Assembly: GCA_903875045.1 (NCBI GenBank)
Contig: CAIQUS010000187.1
Coordinates: forward strand, 36,678 to 100,677
Source of the DNA: an uncultured Bacteroidales bacterium
GTDB taxonomy: Bacteria > Bacteroidota > Bacteroidia > Bacteroidales > FEN-979
Length of the DNA: 64,000 nucleotides
Direction: 5' to 3'
The position numbers and the translations under genes were made by a program. The notes beneath the pieces were generated by a model. That model saw only the letters and a program-made list of their open reading frames with translations. It was not told where the DNA came from and searched no databases. Shown in pieces: positions 32,120 to 57,600 of the stretch (position 1 is its first letter; every line of letters starts with the position of its first letter).

Positions 32120-32167
32120 ATTTCGCTATTTCACTATTTCACTATTTCGCTATTTCGCTATTTTTCT
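32120..32167. repeat. Tandem octamer array ATTTCGCT/ATTTCACT, 6 units, overlapping the arsC-arsM stop
   Basis: atttcgct atttcact atttcact atttcgct atttcgct atttttct. The TAG stop at 32158-32160 lies inside the array. Confidence 0.92.
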
Positions 32168-33387
32168 CCCGAAACAGTGATACTGAAAATCCCTGTTCCT
32201 CCATTTTTAAACTCGGCCAACTCCTTGTCAGAAAGATAATTATTCAGGATTTCATCCGGAATGGTAATCGCTTTTTGCTTGTGAACCTTCACATGTGAGA
32301 ATCCAAACTTGGCAACAATTCCAAGATATGTTTCCATTTGAATAGCACCAGAAACACAACCTGCATACATTTCAGCATCCTGTTTGAGTTTTACCGGAAG
32401 AATTCCTTTGATAACAACATCCGAAACGCAGAAATGGCCTCCCATTTTAAGAACACGGAATATTTCTGAAAAAGCTTTATCCTTATCCGGAACGAGATTC
32501 AGAACACAATTCGACACCACCACATCCACTGTGTTATCAGCCAAAGGCATACTTTCGATATCGCCTTTTACAAAATCAACATTTGAATATCCGAGTTTCT
32601 TATTATTGGTGATGGCTTTTTCTATCATCTCGTCTGTAAAGTCCAGTCCGGTTACTTTCCCGGAATCACCAACGAGTGCCCGGGCAACAAAGCAATCGTT
32701 ACCTGCGCCGCTTCCAAGGTCCAGGACATAGTCCCCTTTTTTAATTCCGGCGAAATCTGTGGGAATTCCACAGCCCAGACCCAGGTCCGCATCAGGATTA
32801 TATCCCTGGCTTTTTGAATAATCTTCACTGAAAATCGTGTAATCCACGTCGCCACAGCAAGATGTCGTCCCACAACAGGAGGATTGATTTTGCTCTTTAG
32901 CCTGATTGGCAATGGCACCGTACTTTTCTTTAACAATCTCTTTTAACTGATTTGCCTTCTGATCCATTTCGGCTTTGATCCTGTCAGCATACAGTGCATG
33001 GAATCCTGCTTTGATTTCATCACGAACCCTGCGATAAACGGGTATCACTTCTTCAACCACCCCGATCGCATCAGCCGGATCATCAAAACCTATATGCAGC
33101 CGGTTTATAACTTCTCCTACAAAAGCAGGACAGGTTTCAAGAGCTCCTCCACAAACTGTAATGACATAATCGAAAGGATCCACCAGGAATACATCAACAC
33201 TTTTTGGTTTATTCCCGGAGATGTCAATCCCGACTTCTTTCATTACTGCCACAGCATAGGGATTTGCCTGTGATGCAGGGTGAGTCCCGGCTGAATATAC
33301 TTCAAGGCGTGAATCGAAAGATTTTAAAAAACCTTCGGCCATCTGGCTCCGGCATGAGTTGCCGGTACAAAGAATTAGAATTTTCAT
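32158..33387 (-). CDS. arsC-arsM: Fusion of LMW-PTP-type arsenate reductase (ArsC) and As(III) S-adenosylmethionine methyltransferase (ArsM)
   Basis: From the ATG at 33387, 'MKILILCTGNSCRSQMAEGF' carries the CX5R P-loop of Trx-coupled ArsC. A linker follows, then the ArsM part: 'SSCCGTTSCCG', 'GLGCGIP', the SAM motif 'VLDLGSGAGND', and 'YAGCVSGA'. The 27-aa N-terminal extension in the track (HYHIITLSHHHINTLSNHHI) is a translated octamer array. Confidence 0.88.
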   Translation of the reverse strand: MKILILCTGNSCRSQMAEGFLKSFDSRLEVYSAGTHPASQANPYAVAVMKEVGIDISGNKPKSVDVFLVDPFDYVITVCGGALETCPAFVGEVINRLHIGFDDPADAIGVVEEVIPVYRRVRDEIKAGFHALYADRIKAEMDQKANQLKEIVKEKYGAIANQAKEQNQSSCCGTTSCCGDVDYTIFSEDYSKSQGYNPDADLGLGCGIPTDFAGIKKGDYVLDLGSGAGNDCFVARALVGDSGKVTGLDFTDEMIEKAITNNKKLGYSNVDFVKGDIESMPLADNTVDVVVSNCVLNLVPDKDKAFSEIFRVLKMGGHFCVSDVVIKGILPVKLKQDAEMYAGCVSGAIQMETYLGIVAKFGFSHVKVHKQKAITIPDEILNNYLSDKELAEFKNGGTGIFSITVSGEK

Positions 33388-33459
33388 GATGTGATGATTT
33401 GATAATGTGTTGATGTGATGATGTGATAATGTGATGATGTGATAATGTTTTGATATACT
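33388..33459. repeat. Tandem octamer array GATGTGAT/AATGTGAT, 9 units
   Basis: gatgtgat gatttgat aatgtgtt gatgtgat gatgtgat aatgtgat gatgtgat aatgtttt gatatact abuts the arsC-arsM start codon. It is the reverse complement of the array at 40972-41051. Confidence 0.92.
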
Positions 33460-33461
33460 GG

Positions 33462-33492
33462 TTTTCAATTTTCAATTCTCAATTTTCAATTG
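33462..33492. repeat. Tandem heptamer array TTTTCAA, about 4 units
   Basis: ttttcaa ttttcaa ttctcaa ttttcaa ttg abuts the arsR stop (33494-33496). Confidence 0.88.
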
Positions 33493-38003: not shown

Positions 38004-39020
38004 TTAATAAATCGCATTAAAAAGAAATCCAACGAAAATAATTCCTATAGTTACAACTCCGACAAAAGTCAGGAGTAACCTCATTTTAAGAACCTTTCTG
38101 AGGATGATCATTTCAGGCAAGGATAAGCCGATAACGGCCATCATAAACGCCAGTGCAGTACCCAGGGGAACCCCCTTTTCAATCAGCACACTCACGATCG
38201 GAATGATCCCTGCTGCGTTCGAATACAGGGGAACCCCAATCAGTACAGACAGAGGCACTGAATACCAGGTCGATTTCCCCATGAGATTGGCCATGAAGCT
38301 CTCCGGAACATATCCATGGGCTGCTGCACCAACAGCAATACCAGCAACTATATATAACCAGACTTTGCCAACGATTTCTCTCACTGCATTGTAGCCGGCT
38401 TGTATTCTGTCGTCGAGGTGGATTTTTTCTTCCTCCTCTGATGAATGATCTGCTTTAATTTCATAAACCCAACTCTCAACATGTTTTTCAAGCTTGAGTT
38501 TCCCAATGACCCAACCTGCAGAAATGGCAATAACCAGTCCTGTAGCAACATAGATTGCTGCAACTTTCCAGCCAAACATACCGAACAGAAGGATTACCGC
38601 CACTTCGTTGATCATGGGTGCGGCAATCAGGAATGAAAAGGTCACTCCCAACGGAATGCCTGATTCAACAAAACCAAGAAACAAAGGTATGGCCGAACAT
38701 GAGCAAAATGGTGTTACGATCCCAAGCATGGAGGCCATCACATTCCCCGTGAAAAGTGATTTCCCTTCCAGCGCCTTCCGGGTTCTTTCCGGTGTAAAAA
38801 AACTGCGGATGATCCCCACCACGAAAATGATCAGCACCAGCAAAAGGAGTACCTTGGGCACTTCAAAGATGAAGAACCTCAATGCTTCTGTAAGATGCTG
38901 ACCCTTTGGCAATTGAATAACACCATCAACGATCCAGTCTGCAACAGATTGCAGATTAATATATGTCAGAATCCATAGTCCCAGGAGTATGATTGGCCAG
39001 AGCCATTTGAATGATTTCAT
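38004..39020 (-). CDS. Permease of the UPF0718/DUF318 family (ArsP-like organoarsenical permease candidate)
   Basis: It is a multi-TM protein with the conserved 'TPFCSCSAIPLF' motif. This family commonly co-occurs with arsR and small redox-active disulfide proteins. I trimmed the start to the ATG at 39020 (MKSFKWLWPIILLG). The longer track ORF overlaps the upstream gene. Confidence 0.75.
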   Translation of the reverse strand: MKSFKWLWPIILLGLWILTYINLQSVADWIVDGVIQLPKGQHLTEALRFFIFEVPKVLLLLVLIIFVVGIIRSFFTPERTRKALEGKSLFTGNVMASMLGIVTPFCSCSAIPLFLGFVESGIPLGVTFSFLIAAPMINEVAVILLFGMFGWKVAAIYVATGLVIAISAGWVIGKLKLEKHVESWVYEIKADHSSEEEEKIHLDDRIQAGYNAVREIVGKVWLYIVAGIAVGAAAHGYVPESFMANLMGKSTWYSVPLSVLIGVPLYSNAAGIIPIVSVLIEKGVPLGTALAFMMAVIGLSLPEMIILRKVLKMRLLLTFVGVVTIGIIFVGFLFNAIY

Positions 39021-39081
39021 GTTTATTCTTAGCGTTATAATTCGTTTTTCGTAGAAAGACGAAATTGTCGGGGAAAAAAAA

Positions 39082-39501
39082 TCAAGCCTTTTTATTTCGA
39101 GGCTTGAGCTGACACATACAAGATCCCGACAATTTTTCACTTTTATCAATTACCAGGGGCATTTCATCCCGCTCCCACTCCACCAGTCCGCCGGCAAGAT
39201 TTGCTATTCTGCCTGCAAGACCGTTTAACATGAGCAGTTTTACTGCCTCCTTGCTGTGCAATCCTGCCGCATCGGCAAAAATCATGGGTTTATCCATTGG
39301 CAAATACGCATAATTCTCCTCCAACATGCTGAAAGGGCAATAAATCACCTCAGGAACATCAAACATCTTAAACCTGCTCAGCGCCTCTTCTCTCACATCA
39401 ACAATCACCGCCCCTTTCTTACATAAAGAAAATGCCTTGTGAGGCGTCACATTCATGATCCCCGCACTAAAAAATCCCCCATTGAAAAACCCCTCTTCCA
39501 T
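39082..39501 (-). CDS. Rhodanese-homology domain protein lacking the catalytic Cys, with a C-terminal CxC tail
   Basis: It is rhodanese-like: 'AVIVDVREE...F' and 'GG...W'. The active-site loop position reads 'FADAAGLHS', with no Cys. The tail is 'SGSCMCQLKPRNKKA'. Confidence 0.6.
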   Translation of the reverse strand: MEEGFFNGGFFSAGIMNVTPHKAFSLCKKGAVIVDVREEALSRFKMFDVPEVIYCPFSMLEENYAYLPMDKPMIFADAAGLHSKEAVKLLMLNGLAGRIANLAGGLVEWERDEMPLVIDKSEKLSGSCMCQLKPRNKKA

Positions 39502-39509
39502 TAATCCCT

Positions 39510-39557
39510 CAAATTTTCAAATCCTCAAATCCTCAAATCTCCAAATTTCCAAATCAA
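39510..39557. repeat. Tandem octamer array CAAATCCT, 6 units
   Basis: caaatttt caaatcct caaatcct caaatctc caaatttc caaatcaa lies between the stop at 39562-39564 and the rhodanese start at 39501. Confidence 0.92.
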
Positions 39558-39561
39558 TTTG

Positions 39562-40272
39562 CTATATAAAGAAAATGACAATGTAATATATTCCAACCAC
39601 GATAAATAAAACCGCTACCACCCTTCGGAACCATAATTCAAAGATTTTGATCTGATTATATAATTTACCTACGTTCCCCACAGCATAAGCAAGTAACCAT
39701 GCAAAAATAATGACTGGCAGACCGGTTGCAATGGCAAAAACAACCGGTAAATACAAACCACTAAGACTGGTAATCGTTATTGGGATGAGTATGGCGAAAT
39801 AAAGAACCCCGCTGTAGGGACAAAATGCCATTGCGAAGACCATACCCAAAAACAAAGTGCCCCAATAACTACGTTTGCTGTGTTCTCCAATTTTTTCAGT
39901 CAGTCCAGAAAACCCGGGAAATTTAATCCTGATAAAGTCGAGCATTAAAAGGCCAATTACGATCAGCAATGGTCCAAGGACTTTTTCCCCCCATCCCTGG
40001 AAAAGCATGGTTATATGCATTTTGCTGGCACCAAAAAACAGGATAACCCCCAAACCGGTATATGATATCGCACGTCCCAGAGTATATACCAACCCCTTGA
40101 TAAATACCCGTTTACGATTTTCAATGTCGCGGCTGATAAACCCGATGGCCGAAATGTTGGTTGCCAATGGGCATGGACTGATAGCTGTCATTAGCCCAAG
40201 AATGAACGCCGTGAGCGCGCCATACTGAGAATTGTCAAGAATCGTTTGGAGGTACTGCATATTTATTATCAC
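39562..40272 (-). CDS. DsbD_2/CcdA-like transmembrane thiol-disulfide transfer protein
   Basis: 236 aa, about 6 TM helices. The conserved 'AISPCPLATN' motif is in TM1 and a second Cys-Pro ('AFCPYSG') is in a central TM helix. Confidence 0.7.
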   Translation of the reverse strand: MIINMQYLQTILDNSQYGALTAFILGLMTAISPCPLATNISAIGFISRDIENRKRVFIKGLVYTLGRAISYTGLGVILFFGASKMHITMLFQGWGEKVLGPLLIVIGLLMLDFIRIKFPGFSGLTEKIGEHSKRSYWGTLFLGMVFAMAFCPYSGVLYFAILIPITITSLSGLYLPVVFAIATGLPVIIFAWLLAYAVGNVGKLYNQIKIFELWFRRVVAVLFIVVGIYYIVIFFI

Positions 40273-40273
40273 A

Positions 40274-40705
40274 TTATTTTAAGAACCCGTCGATTGCTTT
40301 TTTTATCTCTGCCTTCAGCTTTGCCGGACTATCGTTGGCATACATAAAGCCTTTATCAGTCAGGTCGACCCGTTTATCCCCTGAGATGACGATGAGTGTC
40401 TGGCCTTCGATTTTATACTTTGCTCCAATTGCTTCCCCAGCTTTTTCATCCAGGTTGATACTTTTAAAAGAAATCTCTCCGCTTTTCACCTGAGCTGCAA
40501 ATTGAGTTTCGACGGCCTCACTGGAAACTTTCTCTACATTGTTGCATGTCGTGCAACGTCTGGTGAAATGGAAATAATAGACTGTAATACTTTTGCCTGT
40601 CCCAATGGAAGGTGGTCCGAATGAAGCCGATGAAGTACTGGCGTAGCTGAATATATTTCCCGTTGCCATGGCAAGAAGAAATAATAACCCGATGATCCTT
40701 TTCAT
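40274..40705 (-). CDS. Exported CxxC protein (thioredoxin-fold-like module)
   Basis: It has a signal peptide and the motif 'VYYFHFTRRCTTCNNVE'. The module resembles the two CxxC-less modules of the 35796-36539 protein. Confidence 0.55.
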   Translation of the reverse strand: MKRIIGLLFLLAMATGNIFSYASTSSASFGPPSIGTGKSITVYYFHFTRRCTTCNNVEKVSSEAVETQFAAQVKSGEISFKSINLDEKAGEAIGAKYKIEGQTLIVISGDKRVDLTDKGFMYANDSPAKLKAEIKKAIDGFLK

Positions 40706-40715
40706 ACCTGGTTTA

Positions 40716-40949
40716 TTATTTGGTTAATAATTGCTTTAATTCTTCGGAGGTGGGAATACGACCTTTCAACACCACCTTCTCATCAACAACCAGGGCAGGT
40801 GTCGACATTACACCATATTTCATGATCTCCATGATGTCATCTACCTTGATTATAGTAGCATTGATCCCATTTTGCTCAACCACGTCATGGGTGAGTTTGA
40901 CCAGCGTATTGCATTTTGCACAACCCGGACCTAAAACCTTAATTTCCAT
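40716..40949 (-). CDS. Small thioredoxin-family protein (redox-active disulfide protein 2 type)
   Basis: 77 aa. 'MEIKVLGPGCAKCNTL' carries the CxxC motif, and '...VMSTPALVVDEKVVLKGRIPT' is also typical. Confidence 0.88.
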   Translation of the reverse strand: MEIKVLGPGCAKCNTLVKLTHDVVEQNGINATIIKVDDIMEIMKYGVMSTPALVVDEKVVLKGRIPTSEELKQLLTK

Positions 40950-40971
40950 TTTTTATAAAATTTTAAAACAA

Positions 40972-41051
40972 CAATCAATCAAATCATCAAATCATCAAAT
41001 CACCACATCATCAAATCATCACATCATCACATCATCACATCATCACATTAC
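40972..41051. repeat. Tandem octamer array CAAATCAT/CACATCAT, 10 units
   Basis: caatcaat caaatcat caaatcat caaatcac cacatcat caaatcat (cacatcat)x3 cacattac lies between the arsR stop (41054-41056) and the trx start (40949). Confidence 0.95.
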
Positions 41052-41053
41052 CC

Positions 41054-41362
41054 TCATTTCCTGAAAAACCCATCCAGCATCCCCCTGGCCTCTTCCCAGT
41101 TCTCCTTGTTAATACAATATTTAATATAAGGCGGATTGATCTCGCCCTGGATTAGTCCTGACTTTTTCAACTCCTTCAGATGTTCAGACAGCGTGGACCG
41201 TGCAATCGGTATATCTTCAGCCATATCGCCGCTGTAACAACACTTATCTATGTTATCAGCCAGAAAGCCAAGAATGAAGACCCGCGCCGGATGAGCCAGT
41301 GCTTTCGCATACCTGGCCATCTTTTTCTGGGATTCTGTATAGTATTTCTTTGCAGGGGTCAT
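41054..41362 (-). CDS. arsR: ArsR/SmtB family metalloregulator (second copy)
   Basis: 102 aa. '[16 protein letters not shown]' and the HTH segment 'IARSTLSEHLKELKKSGLI' are typical. 'KCCYSGD' carries a vicinal Cys pair. Confidence 0.9.
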   Translation of the reverse strand: MTPAKKYYTESQKKMARYAKALAHPARVFILGFLADNIDKCCYSGDMAEDIPIARSTLSEHLKELKKSGLIQGEINPPYIKYCINKENWEEARGMLDGFFRK

Positions 41363-41510: not shown

Positions 41511-41831
41511 TTAAAGAGAATCAGGCTTATGATGAGTTAGCGTGTACCCCAATGCGACAACGGCCTTAAGCGTTGCAATGGCTGTTTGCCGATCATACGA
41601 TTTTTCTTCCTCCGACAATTCTTCATAAGGAACCAATCCGGGATGTAGTTTTCGAATATCGTCGCGAACAGGGCCATATCTCCAGCCATCCTCCGCACGT
41701 TTTCCGGCCCATACATCGTGAACGCACCTGGCTATTTTTTCAATATGCTCAAGGATGACTTTTGGTAACTGAATCTCTTCTGAGTTCACGGAGGCAGAGA
41801 TGTTGACCGGGTCTGTTGTTTTCATTTTCAT
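41511..41831 (-). CDS. Stand-alone RyR (ryanodine-receptor repeat) domain protein
   Basis: 106 aa. 'IEKIARCVHDVWAGKRAEDGWRYGPVRDDIRKLHPGLVPYEELSEEEKSYDRQTAIATLKAVVALGY' matches the RyR-domain consensus (He.W...GW.YG...HP.LVPY.EL.E.EK..DR). It lies 12 nt downstream of the preceding gene. Confidence 0.85.
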   Translation of the reverse strand: MKMKTTDPVNISASVNSEEIQLPKVILEHIEKIARCVHDVWAGKRAEDGWRYGPVRDDIRKLHPGLVPYEELSEEEKSYDRQTAIATLKAVVALGYTLTHHKPDSL

Positions 41832-41843
41832 AATTTCTCACAG

Positions 41844-44054
41844 TTATGGGTAAATGCTATTCCGGACCTCGCATTCAGATTCGATCACCGGGATGCTGCA
41901 TACCAGCCTTCGGTCGATATCCTTGTAATATTCATTGAGATTTTCATACGCAACAAGACATGGATGGATCATTTGTATTTTGTGGCTTTTCACAAATTTC
42001 TCATGTTCTTTTTTCAGGATACTGTAACTTGAATCTTTCGAGTGTTCGTCCCCTGGATTGTACGCTTTCCATGCAAGATTGGATGTTCTCACAGATTCAG
42101 CAACAATCTGTTCCGTTGGGACATCATAGCCCATCAGAAGAGCAGCAACGTTCCATCGTGCGTGTTCAAGCTCAGCCAATAATGCTATATTTTCATTGGT
42201 AAAGTATTTTTGAAGATTGCCTGCAGTTGCCTTATCTGCTCCAACTGCACGGAGTTTGACCGGAATAGATGCAGCATTGTATCGGTTGGACCATTTATGC
42301 CTTTCCGGCAAATCATCCCAGTATTCTTGCATTTTAGTAAGATCGGACGCATTAAACTTGTCGGGCAATGAATTTTTTGACCAATAAAAATAGTTCACAG
42401 CCATTGCCTTGAATGTGGTATCAAGAGAGAAGTCGAAACTATCGTTCAACATCCCAAATGCTTTGACATGGCGATACTGATTGTCAATTTCTTTATCAGG
42501 CCTCAGGAGTGAAACCACCGAGTGAGATGTTTCCTGCCTGACCAGCACCCTGACTTTTCTTTTATACAAGAGATTTGGCAGAAAAAGTCCTGCTGCCAGG
42601 TTGGCTGACAGATTGTTGAAACACAGGGAAATGGTAGTCAAAGCATCAGGATCACTGGTCCAGTCCAGCAATTTCTCCCTCATGGGAAGACTTTCAAAAT
42701 GGCCTTTGACAAATCGAAGTGAAATGTTTATAAATGGCAGTTTCCCGGTTTTAAAATAATTATCGCCGGTGAAAAGATCTTCATAGCTTACATCCACTGA
42801 TTCATAGAAGGACTGGAACCTTGTTGCGAAATAGTCCCGTTCCCGATCGGCATCGGAATCGATAAATGTAATTTGTGTTTTTCTGTGACTGTAGTTGGCA
42901 AAATGGCCCAGTTTTGCTGCCTCCACCCCGAGGGCAAGTCCCATTTTTGTCATGCCCGCGACTAACAGGTGCACATACTTGTCTGAATCCTGCGTAATAG
43001 GTTCAAAATCAAGCGGTGGGAAAGCTTCCTCAACAGGCCTGCGATCCAGAAAGACCTTTTGTGCCCAGTTTTCATAAAAGCTGAAAGAGTTGATCACGAT
43101 ATTTGCTGTAGTTCCTGAACCGGAAGGTAATGTGCGGACATCGCCGAACTGATAGGCGGCAATGGTTGTTTGTGAATCAAACATAACCTCGCAATTGAGC
43201 TTCTTTCCCGAATTCATGAGTATGTTCTCAGCAAGCCTATCTATTTTAGCGAGACATGCGTTGTTCTTTGAATCGTGCGCTGATTCATTCTCTTCCCCGA
43301 GGATGAATATCCGGCGTGTCAGATGTATGTGCGTTCGGTTTAAGTCATTGGCAGAAGTTCTGTCCCCGAAAAGAATGACGATCCGTTTCATATCCTTCCT
43401 GGTAAATTCAGATGAAAGGATTCTCCTTACCTCCGGAACATTTCTCTCCGTCATCAATACAATACGGTATTTTTCATAATCCCTGCGTCCGATCAACTGC
43501 CTGATCAGGCCATGAACTGCAGGGCTGTATCCAAGAATCAACAGATGGTCTTCATAACGATAGTTCACCATACCCTCCCGAACCAGGGCAACCCGCTGAT
43601 CAAATACATTGGTGATCGTAGATATTAACAGCCCTCCAAAGGCAAATGTTCCTGAAAGAGTCAGCAAGAGTGCGAATAATCGGCTCCAGCCATCTACATC
43701 ACCTGTCGCAGCATCTTTTCCCGCGGCTATACCCACCATGTGCTGGTTGCCCGGATCGATCATTTGAGCTATAACACTCCAGCCAAGGTCAGGTATTTCA
43801 CGGTTGAGTACAATTTCTTTTCCAAAAAAAGAAATAGAAAAAGCGAGGATCAGCCAAATCAGATAGACCGCTGCAAAAACAGTCAGCAGCACAAGCAGTT
43901 GTTTGATAGCCGGGCCCGAAACAGCCTGATCGAACCTGTAAGTAATAAAATCGGCACCCCTGCTAAATACGCTATATTTATTTTTTCTCATCTTATACCT
44001 TATAAAGACCCGGGATTCCCTGAGAATTAACAGTAATCCTTTCATGCAATTCAT
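41844..44054 (-). CDS. Membrane protein: CASTOR/POLLUX-like 2-TM pore region, two Rossmann/RCK-like segments and a C-terminal RyR-like domain
   Basis: The first TM helix is LLVLLTVFAAVYLIWLILAF. The pore-like loop 'WSVIAQMIDPGNQHM' can be compared with the ADSGNHA filter of CASTOR/POLLUX. The second TM helix is LFALLLTLSGTFAFGGLLI. It has 'HLLILGYSPAVHGLIRQL' and 'HLLVAGMTKMGLALGVEAAKL' segments. The C-terminus 'LAELEHARWNVAALLMGY...IHPCLVAYENLNEYYKDIDR' is an RyR-like domain with an insertion. The more likely start is the ATG at 43991 (MRKNKYSVF). Confidence 0.7.
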   Translation of the reverse strand: MNCMKGLLLILRESRVFIRYKMRKNKYSVFSRGADFITYRFDQAVSGPAIKQLLVLLTVFAAVYLIWLILAFSISFFGKEIVLNREIPDLGWSVIAQMIDPGNQHMVGIAAGKDAATGDVDGWSRLFALLLTLSGTFAFGGLLISTITNVFDQRVALVREGMVNYRYEDHLLILGYSPAVHGLIRQLIGRRDYEKYRIVLMTERNVPEVRRILSSEFTRKDMKRIVILFGDRTSANDLNRTHIHLTRRIFILGEENESAHDSKNNACLAKIDRLAENILMNSGKKLNCEVMFDSQTTIAAYQFGDVRTLPSGSGTTANIVINSFSFYENWAQKVFLDRRPVEEAFPPLDFEPITQDSDKYVHLLVAGMTKMGLALGVEAAKLGHFANYSHRKTQITFIDSDADRERDYFATRFQSFYESVDVSYEDLFTGDNYFKTGKLPFINISLRFVKGHFESLPMREKLLDWTSDPDALTTISLCFNNLSANLAAGLFLPNLLYKRKVRVLVRQETSHSVVSLLRPDKEIDNQYRHVKAFGMLNDSFDFSLDTTFKAMAVNYFYWSKNSLPDKFNASDLTKMQEYWDDLPERHKWSNRYNAASIPVKLRAVGADKATAGNLQKYFTNENIALLAELEHARWNVAALLMGYDVPTEQIVAESVRTSNLAWKAYNPGDEHSKDSSYSILKKEHEKFVKSHKIQMIHPCLVAYENLNEYYKDIDRRLVCSIPVIESECEVRNSIYP

Positions 44055-44385
44055 TTACAATGCCCCATATCCGGGGAGCCGGGACTGTCCGGAAAAAGAG
44101 CATCGAATGATGGCAGGTGCCTCTCATCCTCCCGACGCATGAACAAAAATAGGAAATAATCTTAACTATTTTATCCCATGAACAAAAACGGGCTATTACA
44201 ATATTTTGACTGATCCTTTTTATCCCTTGACATTCATCATAATATTAACAATTTCATCTGTAAGCTTTTCAGGTCACCAGGATTCAATTTCACACAGGTT
44301 GCATTGTTAGAAAAGAAGGCGTTTTGGCAGCTCGCATACGAGTTGAAAAAATCAAAGACAAACAGTATTTCAAAACTTTTTCTTC

Positions 44386-44685
44386 ATGATCAAACAAATT
44401 ATCCGTATCTTGTCGAATGCCATAGATTTTATGGTCGAAAAAACTGATCGAATTATGAAAAAGGACACCTTGGAGTACAGGATGATGCAGGAGCGGCAAC
44501 GGTTAAAAGTTTCCGATTCAAAAATATTGATGGGGTCAACGAAAGACAAGTATCCGGTTGTCCTTGATGGCGGCAGAACCATCATATTTATTGACGATAA
44601 AAGTAAGGAGTCGGAAACAAGAAAAAGGTATGATGCACGGCTGGGCAACGGGCTTATTACCTCATTAAACAAACCCAAAACATAA
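44386..44685 (+). CDS. Hypothetical basic 99-aa protein
   Basis: This is ORF evidence only. It sits isolated in a gene-poor stretch and I recognise no motif. Confidence 0.35.
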   Translation: MIKQIIRILSNAIDFMVEKTDRIMKKDTLEYRMMQERQRLKVSDSKILMGSTKDKYPVVLDGGRTIIFIDDKSKESETRKRYDARLGNGLITSLNKPKT

Positions 44686-45212
44686 CCATCACCCCAACGC
44701 AAATAAACGTCAATGGGTATAACAGGGGTTGTTTACACTGATTCGTGCTTAGCTGCTCAAATCATGTGAGTTCTTCGATCTGCTGGTATATTTATCAGGA
44801 TGGCGGGTTATAAGAAAAAATAATCGTAATACTTTTGACCCCGTCAACCCCGATAACCAGATAGTGGATCGTACCGTCCCACATTAATCTTTACCTGATA
44901 ATCCGCCCTGTTTGAGATAGAGTTGATGGTGGTGTCAAGGATGGACAGAAAGTTTAAATGAACTGATCCTACGCCGTGACATGCCTGTCATTCTGGCTGT
45001 AAACACAAAACTGGTTGATCAGATTATCGAAAGTTGCAATTGCAGGAGCCTTTAACCATTGAAGCAAAAAGCACAACCTCCGGTGAAGCTTTTCAGGAAA
45101 TCCTCCAATCCACCAAATTACTGTAAAATCAAATGATTTCACCCAGCTTTTTTAAAACACCCGGTGGGGAAAGGTTGAATTTATGATCATGGGTTTCCCT
45201 CGCAGCGTGCGC

Positions 45213-46826
45213 TTAAGGTTCAATAATTATTTTCTGTATTGCTTTTTCAGAGGGTGTTTCAAGGGTAATGAAATAGGCACCTTCTGATAGATTCATGATG
45301 TTTTGTGTCAGTGAGTTTTTACCCGGTTCCAGGTTTTTCAGTACAGATCTTTTCAATACTCTTCCGTTCGCATCACCAATGGTTAGCGTAACTTCTGAAT
45401 TATTCTCCAGATTAAAATTAAACTCGAATTTTTGATTTTCAATATCCGGGTATACCTGAAGATGCAGCGTGCCGATACTTTGTGGGTTCAGTTTATGAAT
45501 TCCTAACTTAGAATTCTTTACGAGGTTAATTTTAAAAATCTGGCTGCCTGCACTACTCTGAGAACCGTCATTCATCCAGAAAATATTGGCAGCCGAACTA
45601 TGAATGCCTCCAAAGATATAGCCAACCAGGGTCGTATCTGAAGTAAAGTCATCTAACTTCAATACTGCATTGTTGTATTCAGGCAGATTTGAAGCTGGAA
45701 TAAATTCTGAACTTGCACCTAAAAAAGCAGGCATCTCAACAGGTAATTTATATTCAGCCATGACTCCGCTTCCGTTTCTGGTTACCCTGGCTATGGTTTT
45801 CACAAATGGAACATTGTTATTCTGGACCAGGATGCCGGCGCTGTCATAGTATTGGGCAATACCGCCAAAAAAAACATTGTGCATTTCATTCGCACTGGCG
45901 CTATACAATGGAATATGTGCACAATGGTAATGATTATAGAATTGCGAAAAAGCATTGTTCGGCGAATACCCGGTACTGTCGATATTTACACAATTCGTGT
46001 ATGGCAAATCTGCCGCAACCTGAAATACGCCGGAAAAAGCAGTCAAACCCTCCTGACCATTGGGCATAATTTGTGAAACTACATTATAATCACGCCGATG
46101 CAGATTGATTGAATCTACTATTGGGACCAGATGTGTCACCGATAAATTTGTTCCATCATCAGCAATATTAAACCTCCTGATCGAATTTGTATATTCCTGC
46201 ACATAGGATGGATGGCCCATAGGGTTATACCTGCCGTCAAACCGTTGACCACCCGTGAGGTAGTATGTATTGTATATTTTGTTCAGATAGCCACCGGTTA
46301 CGGCAAAAAGTTCATCTGTTATCTGTCGGAAATAGGAGTTGAACGAAGTCCCGCTGATGATGGCGTTGATTACATCTGGTATTTTTACGACAGTTAAATA
46401 AGGATAGGTAATATGGTCATCTGCAGTAATACTATACCCGTATCCTCCAATGATATACAGATCATCCCCGGCCTGGTGAAATTCCATGTTGGTCGAGCTT
46501 AATTGTTCCTGAATTCCGGCAGGCAGCGTCGATAACGGAGCAGACCAAATTTGCTGCCTTTCAGGATCAATCACTAAAAGTCGTGTATTTTGTCCTGCTG
46601 AATCAAACGTGGCCCAGGGCTGACGTCGATGCAAGCCGTCTATTCGTCCTCCAATGAGAAGCCATTTGTCATGATACTGTCCAAAACCGAATGCTTGCAG
46701 ACCAGTCAGGCCACTAATATTCATAGGCTCTATCGCAATTTGAAACGGAGCAGTCTGAGCGCTCATCATCATGGAACAGACGAGTACTAAAAAGAAAATA
46801 ATGCTGATTTTCGTTCTTTTCATCAT
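45213..46826 (-). CDS. Secreted beta-propeller-like (Kelch/galactose-oxidase-like) protein with T9SS C-terminal sorting domain
   Basis: The signal peptide is MMKRTKISIIFFLVLVCSMMMSAQ. It has repeated 'GG' blade-like segments (LLIGGRIDG, YIIGGYGY, YLTGGQRFDG, VFFGGIAQYY, YIFGGIHS). The C-terminus 'LQVYPDIENQKF...GAYFITLETPSEKAIQKIIIEP' is CTD-like. Confidence 0.7.
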   Translation of the reverse strand: MMKRTKISIIFFLVLVCSMMMSAQTAPFQIAIEPMNISGLTGLQAFGFGQYHDKWLLIGGRIDGLHRRQPWATFDSAGQNTRLLVIDPERQQIWSAPLSTLPAGIQEQLSSTNMEFHQAGDDLYIIGGYGYSITADDHITYPYLTVVKIPDVINAIISGTSFNSYFRQITDELFAVTGGYLNKIYNTYYLTGGQRFDGRYNPMGHPSYVQEYTNSIRRFNIADDGTNLSVTHLVPIVDSINLHRRDYNVVSQIMPNGQEGLTAFSGVFQVAADLPYTNCVNIDSTGYSPNNAFSQFYNHYHCAHIPLYSASANEMHNVFFGGIAQYYDSAGILVQNNNVPFVKTIARVTRNGSGVMAEYKLPVEMPAFLGASSEFIPASNLPEYNNAVLKLDDFTSDTTLVGYIFGGIHSSAANIFWMNDGSQSSAGSQIFKINLVKNSKLGIHKLNPQSIGTLHLQVYPDIENQKFEFNFNLENNSEVTLTIGDANGRVLKRSVLKNLEPGKNSLTQNIMNLSEGAYFITLETPSEKAIQKIIIEP

Positions 46827-51698: not shown

Positions 51699-54600
51699 TC
51701 ACCTCGTCACAATCAACTTGAACGATTCAATCAGGTTACCGGAAATCACTTTAACGAAATAGAGTCCGGGAGTTAACGGGGGAAGTGTGACCTTGTGATC
51801 GCGCGCGCCTCCGTAGGTGGTTGAATAAATCATGTTACCGCGTAAATCGAACATTTCAACCCGGACATTCCCGGATCGCATGTCGCCTTTGTTTAACAGT
51901 GTGAATACGCCGGTGGTCGGGTTCGGGTAAAGTGAGAACGTTAGCGATGCAGGCAGTGCCTCTGCCGGTATTGCCTCATCCTGACCTGCCACCATAGCCG
52001 GCATTGTGGGCAGTATGATACCGCAGTAGCCATTGGTCGTGGTGATATATCCATGCAAATACCCTCCCGCTTCAACCGTTGCTCCCGGAAGGTATGAGAT
52101 CCTCTCGCCGGCAATCATAACCGCACTTGCCCCTGTTCTGACTATAAAAGTGCTGCCCCCGCCTGCCACCGTGATGGTGTTGGTGGCATCAAAGCAAAGA
52201 GACAGTGGTCCGGTCATGCCTCCGGTAACAGTTTGGTTGACTGGCACCATGATCATCGTGATCGTGTTGGATGTGGCAGGATTCCCGGTGATGCAAGGAT
52301 AGTTGGATGTCATCTCACATGTAACATGGTCATTGTCATCGGGTATGTAGTTATATGCAGGCCCTGTTCCAACGTTGCTCCCGTTCACCTTCCACTGGTA
52401 AGTGGGGAATGGCCCTCCATTCACCGGTGTTGCAGTGAAATTCACAATGTCTCCCGGAGGCGAAGGGTTGGCCGATGCCGACACCGTGACACTTACCGGA
52501 AGTAAAGGATTTACTGTTAGAAGAACACTGCTGACTTTAGTGGTACCAAGGGCATCTGTTACTGTCACAGAATAGTTGGTAGTTGTTAACGGACTGGCAA
52601 GCGGATCAATGATGCTTGTATTTGACAATCCTGCTGCAGGACTCCATGCATAGCTATATGGAGCAACACCTCCGGCAGGAACTGCATTTAACTGCGATGT
52701 ACTCCCGGCGCAAATAGTCCCGGGGGTAGCCGTTGGCGTCGAAAGCAGCGTTGGAACCCAGTCAACGATGTTGTACGGATCATACTCGAATGCCGTACCG
52801 GCGTATGCTCCTGTATAATCAACAAAATAGACATGGCCGGCACCCACCGCCTTGTAAACATTGAATGTTCCACCCCACGTGTTGGTTGGGAAGTTTGCAT
52901 TTCTGACAACAAACACCTGGCTGTTGTTAACAACCATCATGGCAGCAAAACCAGTAATTCCATCCTGGAAAGTACAGCTCTTAAACGCATGTGCCGGATC
53001 TACTGATGACCCGAGCTGGAGAAACAAACCATTGGCTGACGTGTTTTTAATCAATGCATAATCAGCCGCAATGGTGCCGCCCGACAGTACGTTAAAATCA
53101 TAGTATGCAGTTGGAACATTTGCTCTGACAGTAACCTGGTTTGCGGCCGTACCATTCAACTCAAGGCGCCCGCCAGAATTAATACTCAATGTTCTGGTGT
53201 CAGTGAGTATGAGCGATGATGCGGGTGATAAAGACAAATAACCTGCATTATTCACATTGATATTGCCGGTTACCAACAGGCTGTTTCCATTCAGAAAGTA
53301 GTAACCCTGATTGACTGTGAAGTTGCCACTGTTCTGACAGGTTGCGTAACCGATCTGATTTACAGAATATCCGATTCCCTTGTTTACAAGAATATTGCGA
53401 AAATATCCGGTTACACCGGAATATGTCAGGTTGGAGTGCTCAGAACCTACAAATTCAACAGTATTTGCAACCGCGGAGGTGTGAAATGCACCTGTAGAAG
53501 CAACCGTGAAATCACTGTACACTGCATGAGACAACCCGGAGACGAAATCTTCCCAGATACCATTCGAGATCAGAATGTCGGCGGTACATGTAATATTGTC
53601 AGAAGGTCTGAATTTCCCTGCAGTCTTATTAATAGTCAGGTTGCGAAATTCTTCAGCAGTAGCAGAAGTTGTAAGCATCTGATCGAGATTGCCGTTGAAA
53701 ATTACCGTTGAATTATTTCCCGGATAAAAGCCAAAGTTTGAGGCATAACCCGTGTTGGCATTTGTCCAGTTTTTCCCTACACTGACCTGGGGTCCATAAC
53801 TATCAGCAACATTCAACCCTGCATTCAGGTCGATTGTCAGATTGCCGGATACAGTGAGATTCGCGGGTGACCTGAATTTCATTGTTCCATCGATCAGATG
53901 AAGGTCATTTGTAACTGAAACACTGTTCCAAACCTCCAATGCATCGAATGAAGCATAAGTTTTATTGAGGCTAAGGTTATAGAATGTTTCAGAAGACAGA
54001 ACATCGGCGGCCAGCGGTCCGTCAAATTCGACGGTTCCGGTGCCTTCCGTAAATCCGGATGTGCCCACAAGATTGTTCCAGTTCCGCCCGACTTTGATCG
54101 AAGCCGGGGCAATAAGGGTTCCTGCCTGAATAACTAAATCTCCTGTTAAAACCAGGTTTGAACTTGAAGTTACAACACTTGACGCAACAATGTCAGTCAG
54201 ATCTCCTTCCCTGTTGTAGAAAACCTCCTCAGAACCAGCCTGGGAAATATCTAAAACAGCTGGCTTGTTGATTACAAGATTTGCAAATGTACTCCCCAAT
54301 CCCTGGCTTATAAATGCTTCTGCAGTACCATACATTTCAAAAGTACCTCCTGCAGGGTTGAAATCAGTTCTCGTACCGGCCAGTCGGCCATCTGTTCTGA
54401 TAATACCACCCGTAATTGATTCAGTGAGGGTTGCAGCAGTGTTATAGATATAAATCCCATTGTTCTTAAAATCAAGAATTCCATTTGACATTTCAATTAG
54501 CGCATTATCCATATAAGGCCAGTAACTCGCCCCTGCTCCACCGGTAACTGTCATTGTCCCGCCATAAATATGAAGCTCACCATGCAAGTCCGTGAATTGA

Positions 54601-57600
54601 CCGGCGTCCTGGGTGATGTTCAGCGAACCTCCCGGATTAACCCAAAAGGTACCAAAAAGTCCGCTGTCAACAAGGTCAAGGGCGGTGAATGTGCCTGCAA
54701 TCACATCAATACCACCTGTGGTCCAGTCATATTGGTTACAGATAACAGTATTTGCTGCATTGTTGACACGAAGGGCTGCTCCCATATTGGCTTCAATAAT
54801 ATTGAATGTTTCGCTTGAAACATAATTATGACTTGCCCCGTTGAATATCACCCTGCTTGTTCCTTCAGCAAAACCGGATGTTCCCACTGTATTGGTCCAG
54901 TTTCCTGCAACTGTCAGCGTGGTAGCACCCGGGCTGAAAGTTCCCTGGTCTATTGTCAGATTGCCGGCAACAGTTAGATTGGTGGCAGCGGTTGTCGTAC
55001 CAGACGAACTGAACCTGATATTGTTAATCACTCCGGTTCCTGTTCCATAGTTGCCGGCACTTTGTGTAGTTCCATCGAAAACTAACGTACCCGTGTTGGA
55101 TAAACCGGTAAAATCGAAATTACCAAACATCGCCAAGTTGCCTTTAAGGATTATATCCTGACTCGAATAACTGCTTAAGTTACAGGAGAAATCAGTAAAG
55201 AGAGTACCATTAACAGTAAGCGGTTGGGTAGAAAGATTGCTTACCCTGAGCCAGTCTGTGCCGGATTTGTAGCTCATAACGTTTGGCAAAGCACAGGCGG
55301 CGCTGTATGATCTGATCCAATTTATACCTGCTCCGGCGAAAAAGACCGAACCTGAAGCGAGGTTGGCAGTTGCACCCGGATTAAAGTTCCAGTCTCCATA
55401 AACCCAGAAAATACCGTTGGCAGTAAAGTTTGCTGTTGAACCTGAATTCCAGGCAACGTTCCCTAACGCCCTGATCACCCCTGCAGGATCTGTAAGACCC
55501 AATTGACCATTGATGGTCAAATCGTTGCTGATCGAGAGTTCCATTGTTTGCACTTCGAGTTGTGCTCCGGCGCCAATCGATAAACTGCTGCATTCCTCTT
55601 TTAGAAAAGGAGCATAATTATCGACATAAACAGGCTGATACCCTACATTGTTAACATATACAGGTTCGTCAATCGTTGGAATATGTCCAAGGGACCAGTT
55701 GGCTGCATGGTGCCAGTAATGGTTGAAACCGCCAACCCAGTAATTCGGTAAGGCAGCAGTGACGTTGATTGTGTAATCTTCTACTTCTCCATACGAAGTT
55801 ATACCACATGGATCAACGACTCCTGTATAGGTAATCCTTACCCTCATCACCTTGGTACCCAATGTGGTTGAGAGCGGTGGATCTATGGTGGCAGTATATG
55901 GTCCAAGGCCCGGGGTTACGGCGACAGCAATGGTTTCATTGGCATCTGAGAAATCACCATCATCATTCCAATCCACCCACACCCCACACTGATCTCCTGA
56001 ATAAGGACTTCCATTGGTAACGATTAACGAAGCCGGTGAATTAAGCGGTAAACTTGCTGAAAGACTTGTGTAATCGGAGTACTTTCCGCATCCTGACGTG
56101 TTGTTGATGGAACCAATAAGTACATTGGAAATGTGCTCAAAACAACCACCTTCTGCTTCACAATGTGATAAAACATTGATGGTATAATCTTCTGTTTCAC
56201 CATACGATGTATTACCGCAACTCGTGTGAGCTCCATAACTCAGCCGAACCCGCATGGTGGTATAACCAGTGAGTGCTGTTGGCGGAGCTGCAATGCTGAC
56301 CGAATATGCCGGGCCGGCACCTGTACCAAGGGCAAACTCTTCTCCTGCATCGGCAAAATCTCCATCCTGGTTCCAGTCCACCCAGGCTTTACCCTGATCA
56401 CCGGAATAACCATTAATTGTAACCGACAGTGTCTCACTTGTTCCCTGAATTATTTTGTTGACCATTCCCGTAAAATCACCAAATCCCCCGGGCGATCTTC
56501 CGGATGTATTGCTAATAGTTCCCATAGCGACGTGGCTGATATATTCCAGGCTACTCCAGTATGTCGACCTGGCATTGCAGTAAGTATCGGCAGGTATTGT
56601 TCTCATGCCATTGACGATGAGGGCATAAGCCTGCAAACCGCCAGAAAGCGTACCGCTATGATTGATACGTATTGTATAGTAGCCGGCCACAGGAGAAAGC
56701 ATGTTCACGCTTTCCACGTTATCCCGGAAATTGTCACCTTTTGTCGCAGCGACAGAAGGTGATGCCGGATTGAGAATCCATGGCATATTCGTCGAAGTAC
56801 CAATAACCCTGACATCCAGGTCATTCACCAGCATGAGGGTACCTGGATTCAGTGACGCTGCAGGCGGTGTTCCGGCTGGATCTGTCCAGCAGAGGGTAAC
56901 ATTGATCGGAGTCAGTCCGTCTGAATAGTATGTATAATCTGTTGTTTGTCCATTCACCAGAACAGCCTGTACAATTAAACCACCCTGGGTATTGTCGGCA
57001 GCAATCAAACCTGCGGCACCTGTTGCATTCAGTAAGCCCCAACCATTCTGATAATCCGGTCCGTTGGAAGGCCCGGCTTCATTGGCCGTATTGATTACCA
57101 GTCCCTTTATAGCAGCTGCACTCATGGTTCCACCTTTAAGCGACTTGTAGTAATCCTGCAAAAGGACAAGGGTGCCTGTAGTGTTGGGGGTGGCCATGGA
57201 TGTTCCGTCCAGAGTGGTATACAGTGTATTACCGGCATCAGTAGTGGAATAAACGCCAACCCCGTTTGCAACCAGGTCTGGTTTTATCCTGCCGTCATCA
57301 GTTGGCCCCCAACTGCTGAAGGTACTCTGCACTACATCAGTTGCTGCTGTCCAGCCACCAGCGATATCATTGACAGCGCCGATGGTAAGGATGTTTTTCG
57401 CCACTCCTCCCTGCTCTATACAGTCGTATCCGTCGCTGCCACCATCCTGCTCACGCACGGCATTCGACGCAACCCAGTTGGTTCCGTTGTAAACATAATG
57501 ACTCCCGCTAAAGGCGTCATTTCTATCATTGCCGGATGCTTTAACAATCAAATAATTGGGCGCATTAAATGCAATCTGATCCCAGGCCTGAGAATTCGAA

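Follow-up and report, generated by a model that had tools for sequence, protein, structure and literature searches.

We describe a two-gene module on the reverse strand of a 64,000-nucleotide stretch of DNA (hereafter the window) from an uncultured Bacteroidales bacterium (GenBank assembly GCA_903875045.1, contig CAIQUS010000187.1, positions 36,678 to 100,677 of the forward strand). One gene codes for a channel-like membrane protein with two tandem RCK domains and a C-terminal domain resembling the repeat of ryanodine receptors (RyR), and the other for a small, free-standing RyR-repeat protein. Given that the pair adjoins TIR immune genes in related bacteria, we propose that it is probably a channel gated by a signal and belonging to a Thoeris-like anti-phage system not described before. 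Specifically, we infer with moderate confidence that in this family the two proteins represent a nucleotide-gated cation channel and its RyR partner, which together would serve as both effector and sensor in a Thoeris-like, TIR-based anti-phage system; for the copy in the window, which has no TIR gene beside it, our confidence in the same reading is somewhat less.

The preliminary description of this DNA, made from the letters and a list of open reading frames (ORFs), had recognized two genes 12 nucleotides apart, the larger of which was thought to combine a two-helix pore carrying a filter unlike that of K+ channels, two RCK-like segments and a split RyR-like C-terminus. The ORF list and the sequence contain both ORFs, the gap and all the motifs that it quoted, and the four-part architecture was upheld by profile searches, by an AlphaFold2 (AF2) model and by Foldseek comparisons. 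As listed, the large ORF (41844..44054, reverse strand) codes for 736 amino acids (aa) counted from its first ATG. A later start at ATG 43991, giving a product of about 715 aa, had also been suggested, and this is indeed where the 715-aa database gene model and all the homologues in a 41-sequence alignment begin; starting from the in-frame ATG upstream, at 44054, would lengthen the protein by 21 aa that are absent from every homologue. In the 715-aa numbering, which we use below unless stated otherwise, the characteristic motifs lie at residues 79-85 (DPGNQHM), 149-162 (HLLILGYSPAVHGL), 341-355 (HLLVAGMTKMGLALG), 609-614 (EHARWN) and 675-694 (IHPCLVAYENLNEYYKDIDR).

To the N-terminal side the large protein resembles the pore region of ion channels. 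Its AF2 model, built as a monomer with the 41-sequence alignment (predicted local distance difference test score, pLDDT, 86.2; predicted template modelling score, pTM, 0.80), displays in order an amphipathic N-terminal helix, a first transmembrane (TM) helix, a pore helix, a loop, a variable outer loop, an inner helix, two Rossmann-like lobes and a helical C-terminal domain. Two helices at residues 69-78 and 80-85 fall between the two TM helices, corresponding to a re-entrant pore helix and loop; such a loop had been anticipated in the preliminary description, and it aligns on the pore helix and filter of the BK channel. Examination of the alignment showed that P80 and G81 of the DPGNQHM loop are invariant, while D79 and N82 are conserved in at least 90% of the sequences, and that residues G114, G120, L121 and S124 of the inner helix are invariant too. 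The most conserved positions of the family therefore lie in the loop and the inner helix, which is the pattern expected of a pore. A family profile run against the PDB recovered the pore of BK together with its RCK1 domain (E 4e-6), an alignment in which DPGNQH falls on the TVGYG region, and the pore domains of Kv4 channels (S5-pore-S6) at about 1e-2. The K+ selectivity signature TVGYG itself is absent from the 41 aligned sequences, its place being taken by the invariant or near-invariant DPGNQHM, and on account of this replacement the large protein is not a member of the K+-selective channels. The loop after the filter is modelled with low confidence (pLDDT about 56). As modelled, the protein is constructed like a tetrameric P-loop cation channel with two TM helices and one pore loop (2TM/1P).

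The region following the inner helix is related to the gating rings of RCK channels. The sole Pfam match of the large protein is to Slo-like_RCK (PF22614; residues 169-278 in the numbering of the 736-aa ORF), whose score of 26.3 bits is just above the cut-off of 24. A Foldseek search of the PDB with the full model ranked GsuK first (E 1e-8), followed by human Slo1/BK, then MthK, then the gating ring of Lotus CASTOR (LjCASTOR), each of them a channel that has an RCK ring, with the alignments to tandem-RCK channels spanning 500-700 columns, and the family profile likewise recovered DMI1 (5.9e-5) and CASTOR (1.5e-4). The dinucleotide-binding motif GxGxxG, found in NAD-binding KTN/RCK domains, is not kept in either lobe: the corresponding segments read ILGYSPAV in RCK1 and AGMTKMG in RCK2, where single glycines alone are conserved (one of them, in RCK1, being invariant). 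On the evidence of the model, each subunit has two tandem RCK domains directly after the inner helix. The resemblance to the plant channels CASTOR and DMI1 that had been claimed from the filter region accordingly holds for the RCK ring, as seen by both profile and Foldseek, but it does not extend to the Castor_Poll_mid domain of Pfam, which has no match on the large protein at E<=0.01. The filter of CASTOR/POLLUX/DMI1 reads A-D-x-G-N-H-A, which would be near D-P-G-N-Q-H; a literature search for the CASTOR filter motif strings found nothing.

The small protein is, by its sequence, a canonical single RyR repeat. It matches the Pfam RyR domain (PF02026) with an E-value of 7.8e-27 (93.8 bits; profile positions 5-90 of 91), the Bacteroides thetaiotaomicron structures 3nrt and 6uag at about 1e-24, and the repeats of animal RyR1-3 in the PDB at about 1e-42, the last value being summed over four repeats. 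The C-terminus of the channel is more diverged: Pfam RyR gives no match there at E<=0.01, and the RyR-like domain is split by a helical-hairpin insertion of about 50 aa (residues 622-672; 41976-42128). Nevertheless, hhalign aligned it with a set of six small RyR proteins at a probability of 95.4% (E 1.7e-8), and the family profile matched an RyR chimera in the PDB at 5.7e-7. A hidden Markov model (HMM) of the small RyR proteins directly matches the C-terminus of 25 out of 90 family members, the best values (down to 1.7e-7) being obtained in relatives that lack the insertion; for the window channel itself the value is 7.8e-4. These results support the view that the channel ends in a diverged RyR repeat bearing an insertion. 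Both kinds of domain expected from the preliminary description, RCK and RyR, were recovered by profiles, the diverged C-terminal repeat being indicated by hhalign rather than by Pfam.

RyR repeats had been recognized in bacteria and phages for years before any function was assigned to them, and two preprints of mid-2026 on phage proteins throw light on what such domains might bind. RyDEP from mycobacteriophage DyoEdafos binds and cleaves the cyclic ADP-ribose (cADPR) isomers 2'cADPR as well as 3'cADPR; H75 and D117 are catalytic, W78 is placed at the adenine and H100 at the phosphates (PMC13232231). RyR Tad, gp68 of Pectobacterium phage CB1, sequesters 3'cADPR with a Kd of 43 nM, and 2'cADPR and cADPR at under 1 uM, using a pocket formed by H129/W132, H154 and D171 (10.64898/2026.06.04.730250). 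The equivalent residues of the small protein are H38, W41, H63 and D80, whose spacing is identical to that of H75/W78/H100/D117 in RyDEP, and those of the channel are H610, W613, H676 and D693, which are invariant or near-invariant across its homologues. In an alignment combining the small proteins, gp68 and three distant channel C-termini the His, Trp, His and Asp are all invariant. Both RyR modules of the pair thus keep the predicted His/Trp/His/Asp pocket that contacts 3'cADPR in RyDEP and RyR Tad, making them putative binders of a similar ligand. The earlier statement that no function has been assigned to bacterial RyR-domain proteins is therefore outdated as far as the fold is concerned, since the two 2026 phage preprints report binding or cleavage of cADPR-type signals, and stands for the bacterial proteins.

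To understand the genomic context of the pair we surveyed 85 non-redundant related loci, which come mostly from Bacteroidales and are phylogenetically related to each other (loci and contigs are labelled L below). An RyR-domain gene is by far the commonest neighbour of the channel gene, being found within 5 kb in 58-63 of these loci (68-74%) and within 100 bp in 40, which bears out the expectation that the two genes are co-conserved; the channel stands without a small RyR gene in the other 22-27. The partner is almost always on the same strand, lies either upstream or downstream of the channel gene, and often overlaps it by the stop and start codons; where the genes do not overlap they stand 4-30 nt apart. 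In the Bacteroides-type loci the RyR partner bears a C-terminal TM segment of its own, and in a Paraprevotella metagenome-assembled genome (MAG) a single ORF of 836 aa (L055:9614-12124) combines the channel with a canonical RyR repeat placed N-terminal to it (residues 16-105; Pfam 1.2e-33), although this fusion may reflect an assembly frameshift. Taken together, adjacency in about 70% of the loci, the TM-anchored partners and the L055 fusion support the proposal, already made in the preliminary description, that the small protein acts together with the channel; that the two RyR modules would also pair physically with each other is a conjectural extension of it. The spacer of only 12 nt in the window implies co-transcription and, probably, coupled translation of the two genes.

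The family is large and of restricted phyletic spread. A scan of one genome per species found channel relatives in 270 genomes, nearly all of them Bacteroidales, including Bacteroides, Phocaeicola, Alistipes, Tannerella, Prevotellaceae and Muribaculaceae, with the closest match to the window channel being 54% identical; among 1.84 billion representative proteins there are 963 clusters at E<=1e-30. RyR repeats also recur in these neighbourhoods in other combinations. Proteins of 330-384 aa with a Peptidase_C39-like domain and, at the C-terminus, a canonical RyR repeat are encoded 0.5-1 kb downstream of the channel gene in L051-L053, L063, L067, L069, L070, L079 and L081-L083 (e.g. L053:7006-7998 and L063:13237-14388), usually preceded by the gene for a conserved 190-aa protein that Pfam does not recognise, which occurs in 16 loci and in each of them on the same strand; the fusion proteins could be a second RyR-sensed effector. 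The fusion of RyR to the Peptidase_C39-like domain and to other proteins of 720-740 aa in the same neighbourhoods is typical of signal-sensing modules, as in other signalling defence systems. The remaining recurrent neighbours are TPR proteins and an M48 peptidase with a zinc ribbon. In two loci (L071:14804-16975 and L086:12145-14376) a second protein of 723-743 aa with a C-terminal RyR-like domain, scoring just below the Pfam cut-off at 26.9 and 25.8 bits, is encoded beside the channel gene and may be a divergent paralogue or another effector. Five homologues of 1185-1463 aa (P0301, P0304, P0307, P0308 and P0323) have an FGE-sulfatase (SUMF1-like) domain after the RyR-like domain. The closest matches to the small RyR protein in phage databases (48-51% identity) are on L094 (MT836850.1, 7040-8493), where a channel homologue comes next after the RyR gene but runs off the contig, and L093 (MT837259.1, 11052-11351). 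Both are 'UNVERIFIED Bacteriophage sp.' contigs from human faecal viromes; the pair may be carried by a mobile element or phage, or else the contigs are bacterial contaminants.

The link to immunity comes from the TIR genes of related loci. TIR-domain genes were found on the same strand within about 4 kb of the channel gene on all seven contigs of close (37-54% identical) and distant (27-29%) homologues, their products being fused to, or adjoining, TPR, nSTAND1-TPR, WD40, WG-repeat, Sel1 or SIR2 modules. Across the 85 loci, where TIR genes were identified with an HMM of our own and cross-checked by Pfam on cluster representatives, the density of TIR genes falls steeply with distance from the channel, from 15.6 per 100 kb at 0-1 kb to 2.7 at 1-2.5 kb, 1.9 at 2.5-5 kb, 1.5 at 5-7.5 kb and 0 at 7.5-10 kb, and 32 of the 37 TIR genes within 5 kb share the strand of the channel. 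In all, 30 of the 85 loci (35%) have a TIR gene within 5 kb. The genes are arranged as channel-RyR-TIR-TPR in L001 and as TIR-TPR-x-channel-RyR in L003. In the window's own clade (at least 44% identity) this holds for five of six loci; in the sixth (L004) the contig breaks off, and a TIR gene is present on its sister contig L005. Both the FISY motif and the catalytic glutamate of the 'WV..E' motif are conserved in at least 80% of the 42 associated TIR domains, which come from the relatives only and align with ThsB of Thoeris type X. The TIR-channel operons of this clade are also flanked by defence-type genes, namely AbiEii with DUF6922, the type I restriction subunit HsdR and an SNF2/DUF3670 helicase (L001:1-835, L002:8820-12032 and L003:8928-12446), an arrangement consistent with defence islands. 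Flanking defence genes, which had been suggested as a feature to look for, are present in the relatives, in the form of TIR genes in 30 of 85 loci; the window has no TIR gene.

These observations can be combined in a hypothetical sequence of events. Upon infection the TIR protein would turn NAD+ into a cADPR-type nucleotide, which would bind the RyR pocket or pockets of the module. The small RyR protein and the single C-terminal repeat of the channel would together make up a two-repeat module like Repeat12 of animal RyRs, and binding would be relayed through the RCK ring to the gate at the inner helix, opening the pore. The resulting flux of cations through the DPGNQH pore would collapse the membrane potential, abort the infection and halt phage growth. 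In its fullest form the proposal envisages a complete bacterial pathway from TIR protein through cADPR-type nucleotide and RyR repeat to channel opening, in which a free RyR protein completes a two-repeat site, while an RyR-fold sensor and an RCK-gated, non-K+-selective cation channel as effector define a new type of Thoeris; ligand sensing for an immune ion channel would have been the original task of the RyR repeat, and the disputed action of cADPR on animal RyRs would be a relic of this mediated by Repeat12. This ensemble of claims we put forward tentatively, as possible and in our estimate short of probable.

Several findings weigh against the Thoeris-like reading. There is no TIR gene or remnant within the 64-kb window, as judged by tblastn with 16 neighbour proteins from related loci (nine of them TIR proteins), Pfam scans of the flanking ORFs and a six-frame HMM search, and tblastn and the six-frame search found no TIR, TPR or RyR remnant in the gene-poor stretch upstream of the channel gene either; a 14-aa tblastn match at 44120-44161, considered as a TIR remnant, is noise (E 4.3). 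On the Thoeris-like reading the window copy would therefore have to answer a signal made elsewhere in the genome, or another adenine nucleotide. Among the relatives, 55 of the 85 loci have no TIR gene within 5 kb, and a Pfam scan of 120 same-strand neighbours of these 55 detected no TIR domain, only three DUF4062 proteins along with STAND/TPR and housekeeping families; DUF4062 proteins have been reported as TIR-like NADases (10.64898/2026.05.01.722283). Many Bacteroides copies, too, lack a TIR gene, and in the Bacteroides-type loci of several species the pair has housekeeping genes on both sides, for inositol monophosphatase, PfkB kinase and an S41 peptidase; the phylogenetic relatedness of the loci means that the TIR counts are not independent events. 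The TIR proteins of the relatives, being large and multidomain, could be NAD+-depleting effectors rather than signal makers. As animal Repeat12 binds ATP and ADP, the ligand need not be an immune signal. PADLOC models match neither protein, and NCBIfam gives no meaningful match. Finally, the isolated C-terminal domain of the channel, though modelled well (pLDDT 93.3), retrieves in Foldseek best matches that are nearly all RyR repeats but are not significant (E at least 0.84; TM-score 0.44-0.59), so that this structural match is suggestive at most.

One alternative is that the pair is a stand-alone housekeeping channel, gated by nucleotides and conducting cations, whose RyR modules sense ATP/ADP, ADP-ribose or an NAD-derived compound and adjust ion flux to the metabolic state; TIR operons would then have recruited the cassette in some lineages, and the copy in the window would be unrelated to phage defence. 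The analogy is with GsuK, the closest solved fold, which is a multi-ligand channel tuned by NAD+ and ADP and crystallised with both, and with Repeat12 of animal RyRs, where ATP acts and which has been described as an ATP and drug site (10.64898/2026.06.04.730250). A housekeeping role would accommodate the sheer size of the family, the embedding of the Bacteroides-type loci in housekeeping genes, the want of a TIR gene in the window and the 65% of loci that have none nearby. It does not, however, account for the strong positional enrichment of TIR genes beside the channel or for their occurrence throughout the window's own clade, and the neighbouring genes are otherwise of kinds typical for conflict systems, among them TPR/STAND, SIR2-TIR, AbiEii, type I restriction and peptidase-RyR fusions, with a patchy distribution and variable flanks. 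Moreover, with the very same residues the RyR proteins of phages achieve nM affinity for cADPR isomers. We regard a purely metabolic channel as rather unlikely, though a serious rival; were it correct, abundant gut bacteria would still possess in this pair a cation channel that senses nucleotides in an unusual form. Still less can be said for the notion that the large protein is no ion channel at all, its two helices merely anchoring a cytoplasmic Rossmann/RyR protein with a signalling or enzymatic role, while DPGNQH binds, for instance, a metal or ligand at the periplasmic face. The absent K+ filter signature, the degenerate GxGxxG motifs, the poorly modelled loop and the monomeric nature of the AF2 model would all be compatible with this. 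Against it, the pore helix, the loop and the glycine-hinge inner helix align lengthwise with the pores of BK, Kv and GsuK in both profile and Foldseek comparisons, and the most conserved residues of the family sit exactly in the loop and inner helix. CASTOR and DMI1, too, conduct cations through a similarly non-canonical filter. An anchor without a pore thus strikes us as highly improbable.

A further alternative concerns the role of the small protein alone and is compatible with the Thoeris-like reading. The channel might sense the signal through its own C-terminal domain, with the small RyR protein serving as a host brake, either as a homodimeric sponge or as a glycosidase like RyDEP; by buffering or destroying the cADPR-type signal it would set a threshold and prevent self-killing, a part comparable to that of the ring nucleases in type III CRISPR systems. 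The positions of the RyDEP dyad are kept in the small protein (H38/D80, equivalent to H75/D117) with the ligand-contacting residues at identical spacing, the single-repeat RyR proteins (RyDEP, RyR Tad and the B. thetaiotaomicron orthologue) are homodimers, and the channel can exist alone, as the loci lacking a small RyR gene attest. But the same dyad residues are kept in non-catalytic sponges and in animal RyRs (PMC13232231), and hence give no indication of catalysis. The L055 fusion and the TM-anchored partners argue instead for one membrane complex, and functional RyR modules comprise two repeats, of which the channel has a single one. On balance a brake appears a real but rather doubtful possibility.

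The coordinates of the pair and of its parts are collected in Table 1. The gene-poor stretch of 1.16 kb noted in the preliminary description is real and is the probable promoter region of the channel gene; promoter and terminator scans around the pair gave site counts no better than chance or shuffled sequence. Within it, on the opposite strand, is a 99-aa ORF (44386-44685, forward) without a Pfam match. Beyond this stretch the next gene upstream codes for a protein secreted by the type IX secretion system (T9SS), a trait by which the organism can be recognised as one of the Bacteroidota. Por_Secre_tail (T9SS) sorting domains occur in three proteins of the reverse strand (45213-46826, 51699-58379 and 58603-63735), one of them an S8 subtilase of 2226 aa that also has GEVED domains, and another a protein of 1710 aa in which no further domain is recognised. 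What had been called an accessory island lies downstream, where, 148 nt from the pair, Pfam identifies a separate operon coding for ArsR, thioredoxin, DsbD, rhodanese and ArsP permease. In full, this operon (38004-41362, reverse strand) comprises an ArsR-family regulator, a thioredoxin_3 protein, a 143-aa protein without assignment, DsbD_2, a rhodanese and an ArsP_1 permease. A further gene at 32158-33468 (reverse strand) codes for a low-molecular-weight phosphatase (arsenate-reductase-like) fused to a SAM methyltransferase. Together, the operon and this fusion look like an arsenic/redox accessory region.

Table 1. Coordinates of the channel-RyR gene pair, its domains and adjoining intervals in the window (residue numbers refer to the 715-aa protein)
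Feature	Positions	Strand	Residues	Description and basis
Channel-like gene	41844..43991	-		715 aa + stop; start most likely ATG 43991; ORF list, database gene model, homologue alignment
TM1, outer pore-domain helix	43827..43910	-	28-55	AF2 helix; aligns to S5 of BK/Slo1 in profile search
Pore helix GWSVIAQMI and filter-like loop DPGNQHM	43737..43796	-	66-85	alignment, AF2, BK profile
TM2, inner helix	43578..43691	-	101-138	FGGLLIST glycine hinge conserved; alignment, AF2, profile
RCK1, Rossmann-like lobe	43032..43556	-	~146-320	Pfam, PDB profile, Foldseek
RCK2, second Rossmann-like lobe	42417..42986	-	~336-525	VHLLVAGMTKMGLALG; AF2 beta-alpha-beta pattern 339-512, Foldseek
C-terminal RyR-like domain of channel	41847..42203	-	597-715	hhalign, HMM, PDB profile
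Intergenic spacer	41832..41843	-		exactly 12 nt; + strand reads AATTTCTCACAG
Small RyR gene	41511..41831	-		106 aa, free-standing single RyR repeat; Pfam PF02026
Gene-poor stretch upstream of channel gene	44055..45212			no ORF >110 aa; ORF list

If the Thoeris-like reading is correct, what is new is a form of TIR-linked nucleotide signalling with a new host-side sensor fold and a new class of effector; that is, TIR signalling immunity would gain both a sensor domain and an effector class. The two phage preprints (PMC13232231; 10.64898/2026.06.04.730250) say nothing of RyR proteins of the host that are associated with channels or TIRs, and a literature search for a link of bacterial RyR proteins to TIR or Thoeris found nothing beyond these two. 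In its text and in the covered portions of its tables, a December 2025 survey of TIR systems (10.64898/2025.12.03.692087) mentions neither RyR, RCK nor TrkA. The reading would also provide a function for about 1000 sequence clusters of unannotated Bacteroidales membrane proteins, one partner of which has already been crystallised (3NRT, 6UAG), and would offer a small, tractable model of how an RyR repeat couples nucleotide binding to gating, with a bearing on the question of direct cADPR action on animal RyRs.

The crystallised partner is the B. thetaiotaomicron 'putative ryanodine receptor' (PDB: 3NRT, 4N05, 6UAG, 6UG4 and 6UG5), which is near-identical over its full length (E about 1e-60) to the small RyR protein of L028, a B. 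thetaiotaomicron MAG in which the gene for the latter lies 4 nt upstream of a channel homologue. According to the PDB titles, which give no function or ligand, it was crystallised as open and closed dimers, and a literature search on these structures found no link to a channel or TIR. The phage proteins RyDEP and RyR Tad share with the window modules the PF02026 fold and the His/Trp/His/Asp pocket, gp68 being 32.5% identical to the small protein in a tblastn comparison (E 2e-5). They bind 2'cADPR, 3'cADPR and cADPR, of which RyDEP cleaves the first two. Whereas they are soluble counter-defence proteins, in the window family the chromosome encodes the fold, which is part of a channel or its partner and stands on the defence side of the TIR operons of relatives; if the Thoeris-like reading is true, this suggests that the phage RyR sponges were captured from a host sensor.

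Among TIR systems the nearest in concept is Thoeris type X, which consists of TIR proteins and the ion-channel effector ThsK (10.64898/2025.12.03.692087). There, too, the TIR gene adjoins a gene for a membrane, ion-channel-like effector, the concept being that a TIR-made nucleotide would open or assemble the membrane effector. A TIR gene in the effector operon, as is characteristic of Thoeris, is found in the relatives of the pair and not in the window, and the TIRs of these relatives are long multidomain proteins, in contrast to the short ThsB of type X. A type X locus of Vibrio sp. JCM 19052, found by way of ThsB (L091:2740-4468), codes for a 208-aa protein with a K+-channel-like TLTYGGF loop and has ThsB-type TIR genes on both sides; from the gene order and the loop this protein is presumably ThsK. 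We considered whether the window family might itself be ThsK and ruled this out, as hhalign against the presumed ThsK gave a probability of 0.16% and the latter has neither RCK nor RyR domains.

Among channels, GsuK, the multi-ligand-gated K+ channel of Geobacter sulfurreducens (PDB: 4GX0-4GX5), is the top Foldseek match of the large protein, with 500-580 aligned columns, and has the same succession of a 2TM pore and two tandem RCK domains per subunit. In GsuK, BK and CASTOR, the two RCK domains of each subunit form a cytoplasmic gating ring. GsuK, MthK and BK nonetheless differ from the window family in having the TVGYG K+ filter in place of the DPGNQH loop and in the lack of any RyR domain or RyR partner, and the sequence identity is only 10-17%. 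CASTOR, POLLUX and DMI1, the cation channels of the plant nuclear envelope, share the RCK gating ring (Foldseek matches 6o7a, 6o7c and 6o6j) but are eukaryotic, have more TM helices and lack an RyR module. Animal RyRs are 5,000-aa Ca2+ release channels with six TM helices, tandem repeats (Repeat12 and Repeat34) and no RCK ring, and their pore domains are not specifically related to that of the window family; what the two have in common is an RyR fold attached to a cation channel.

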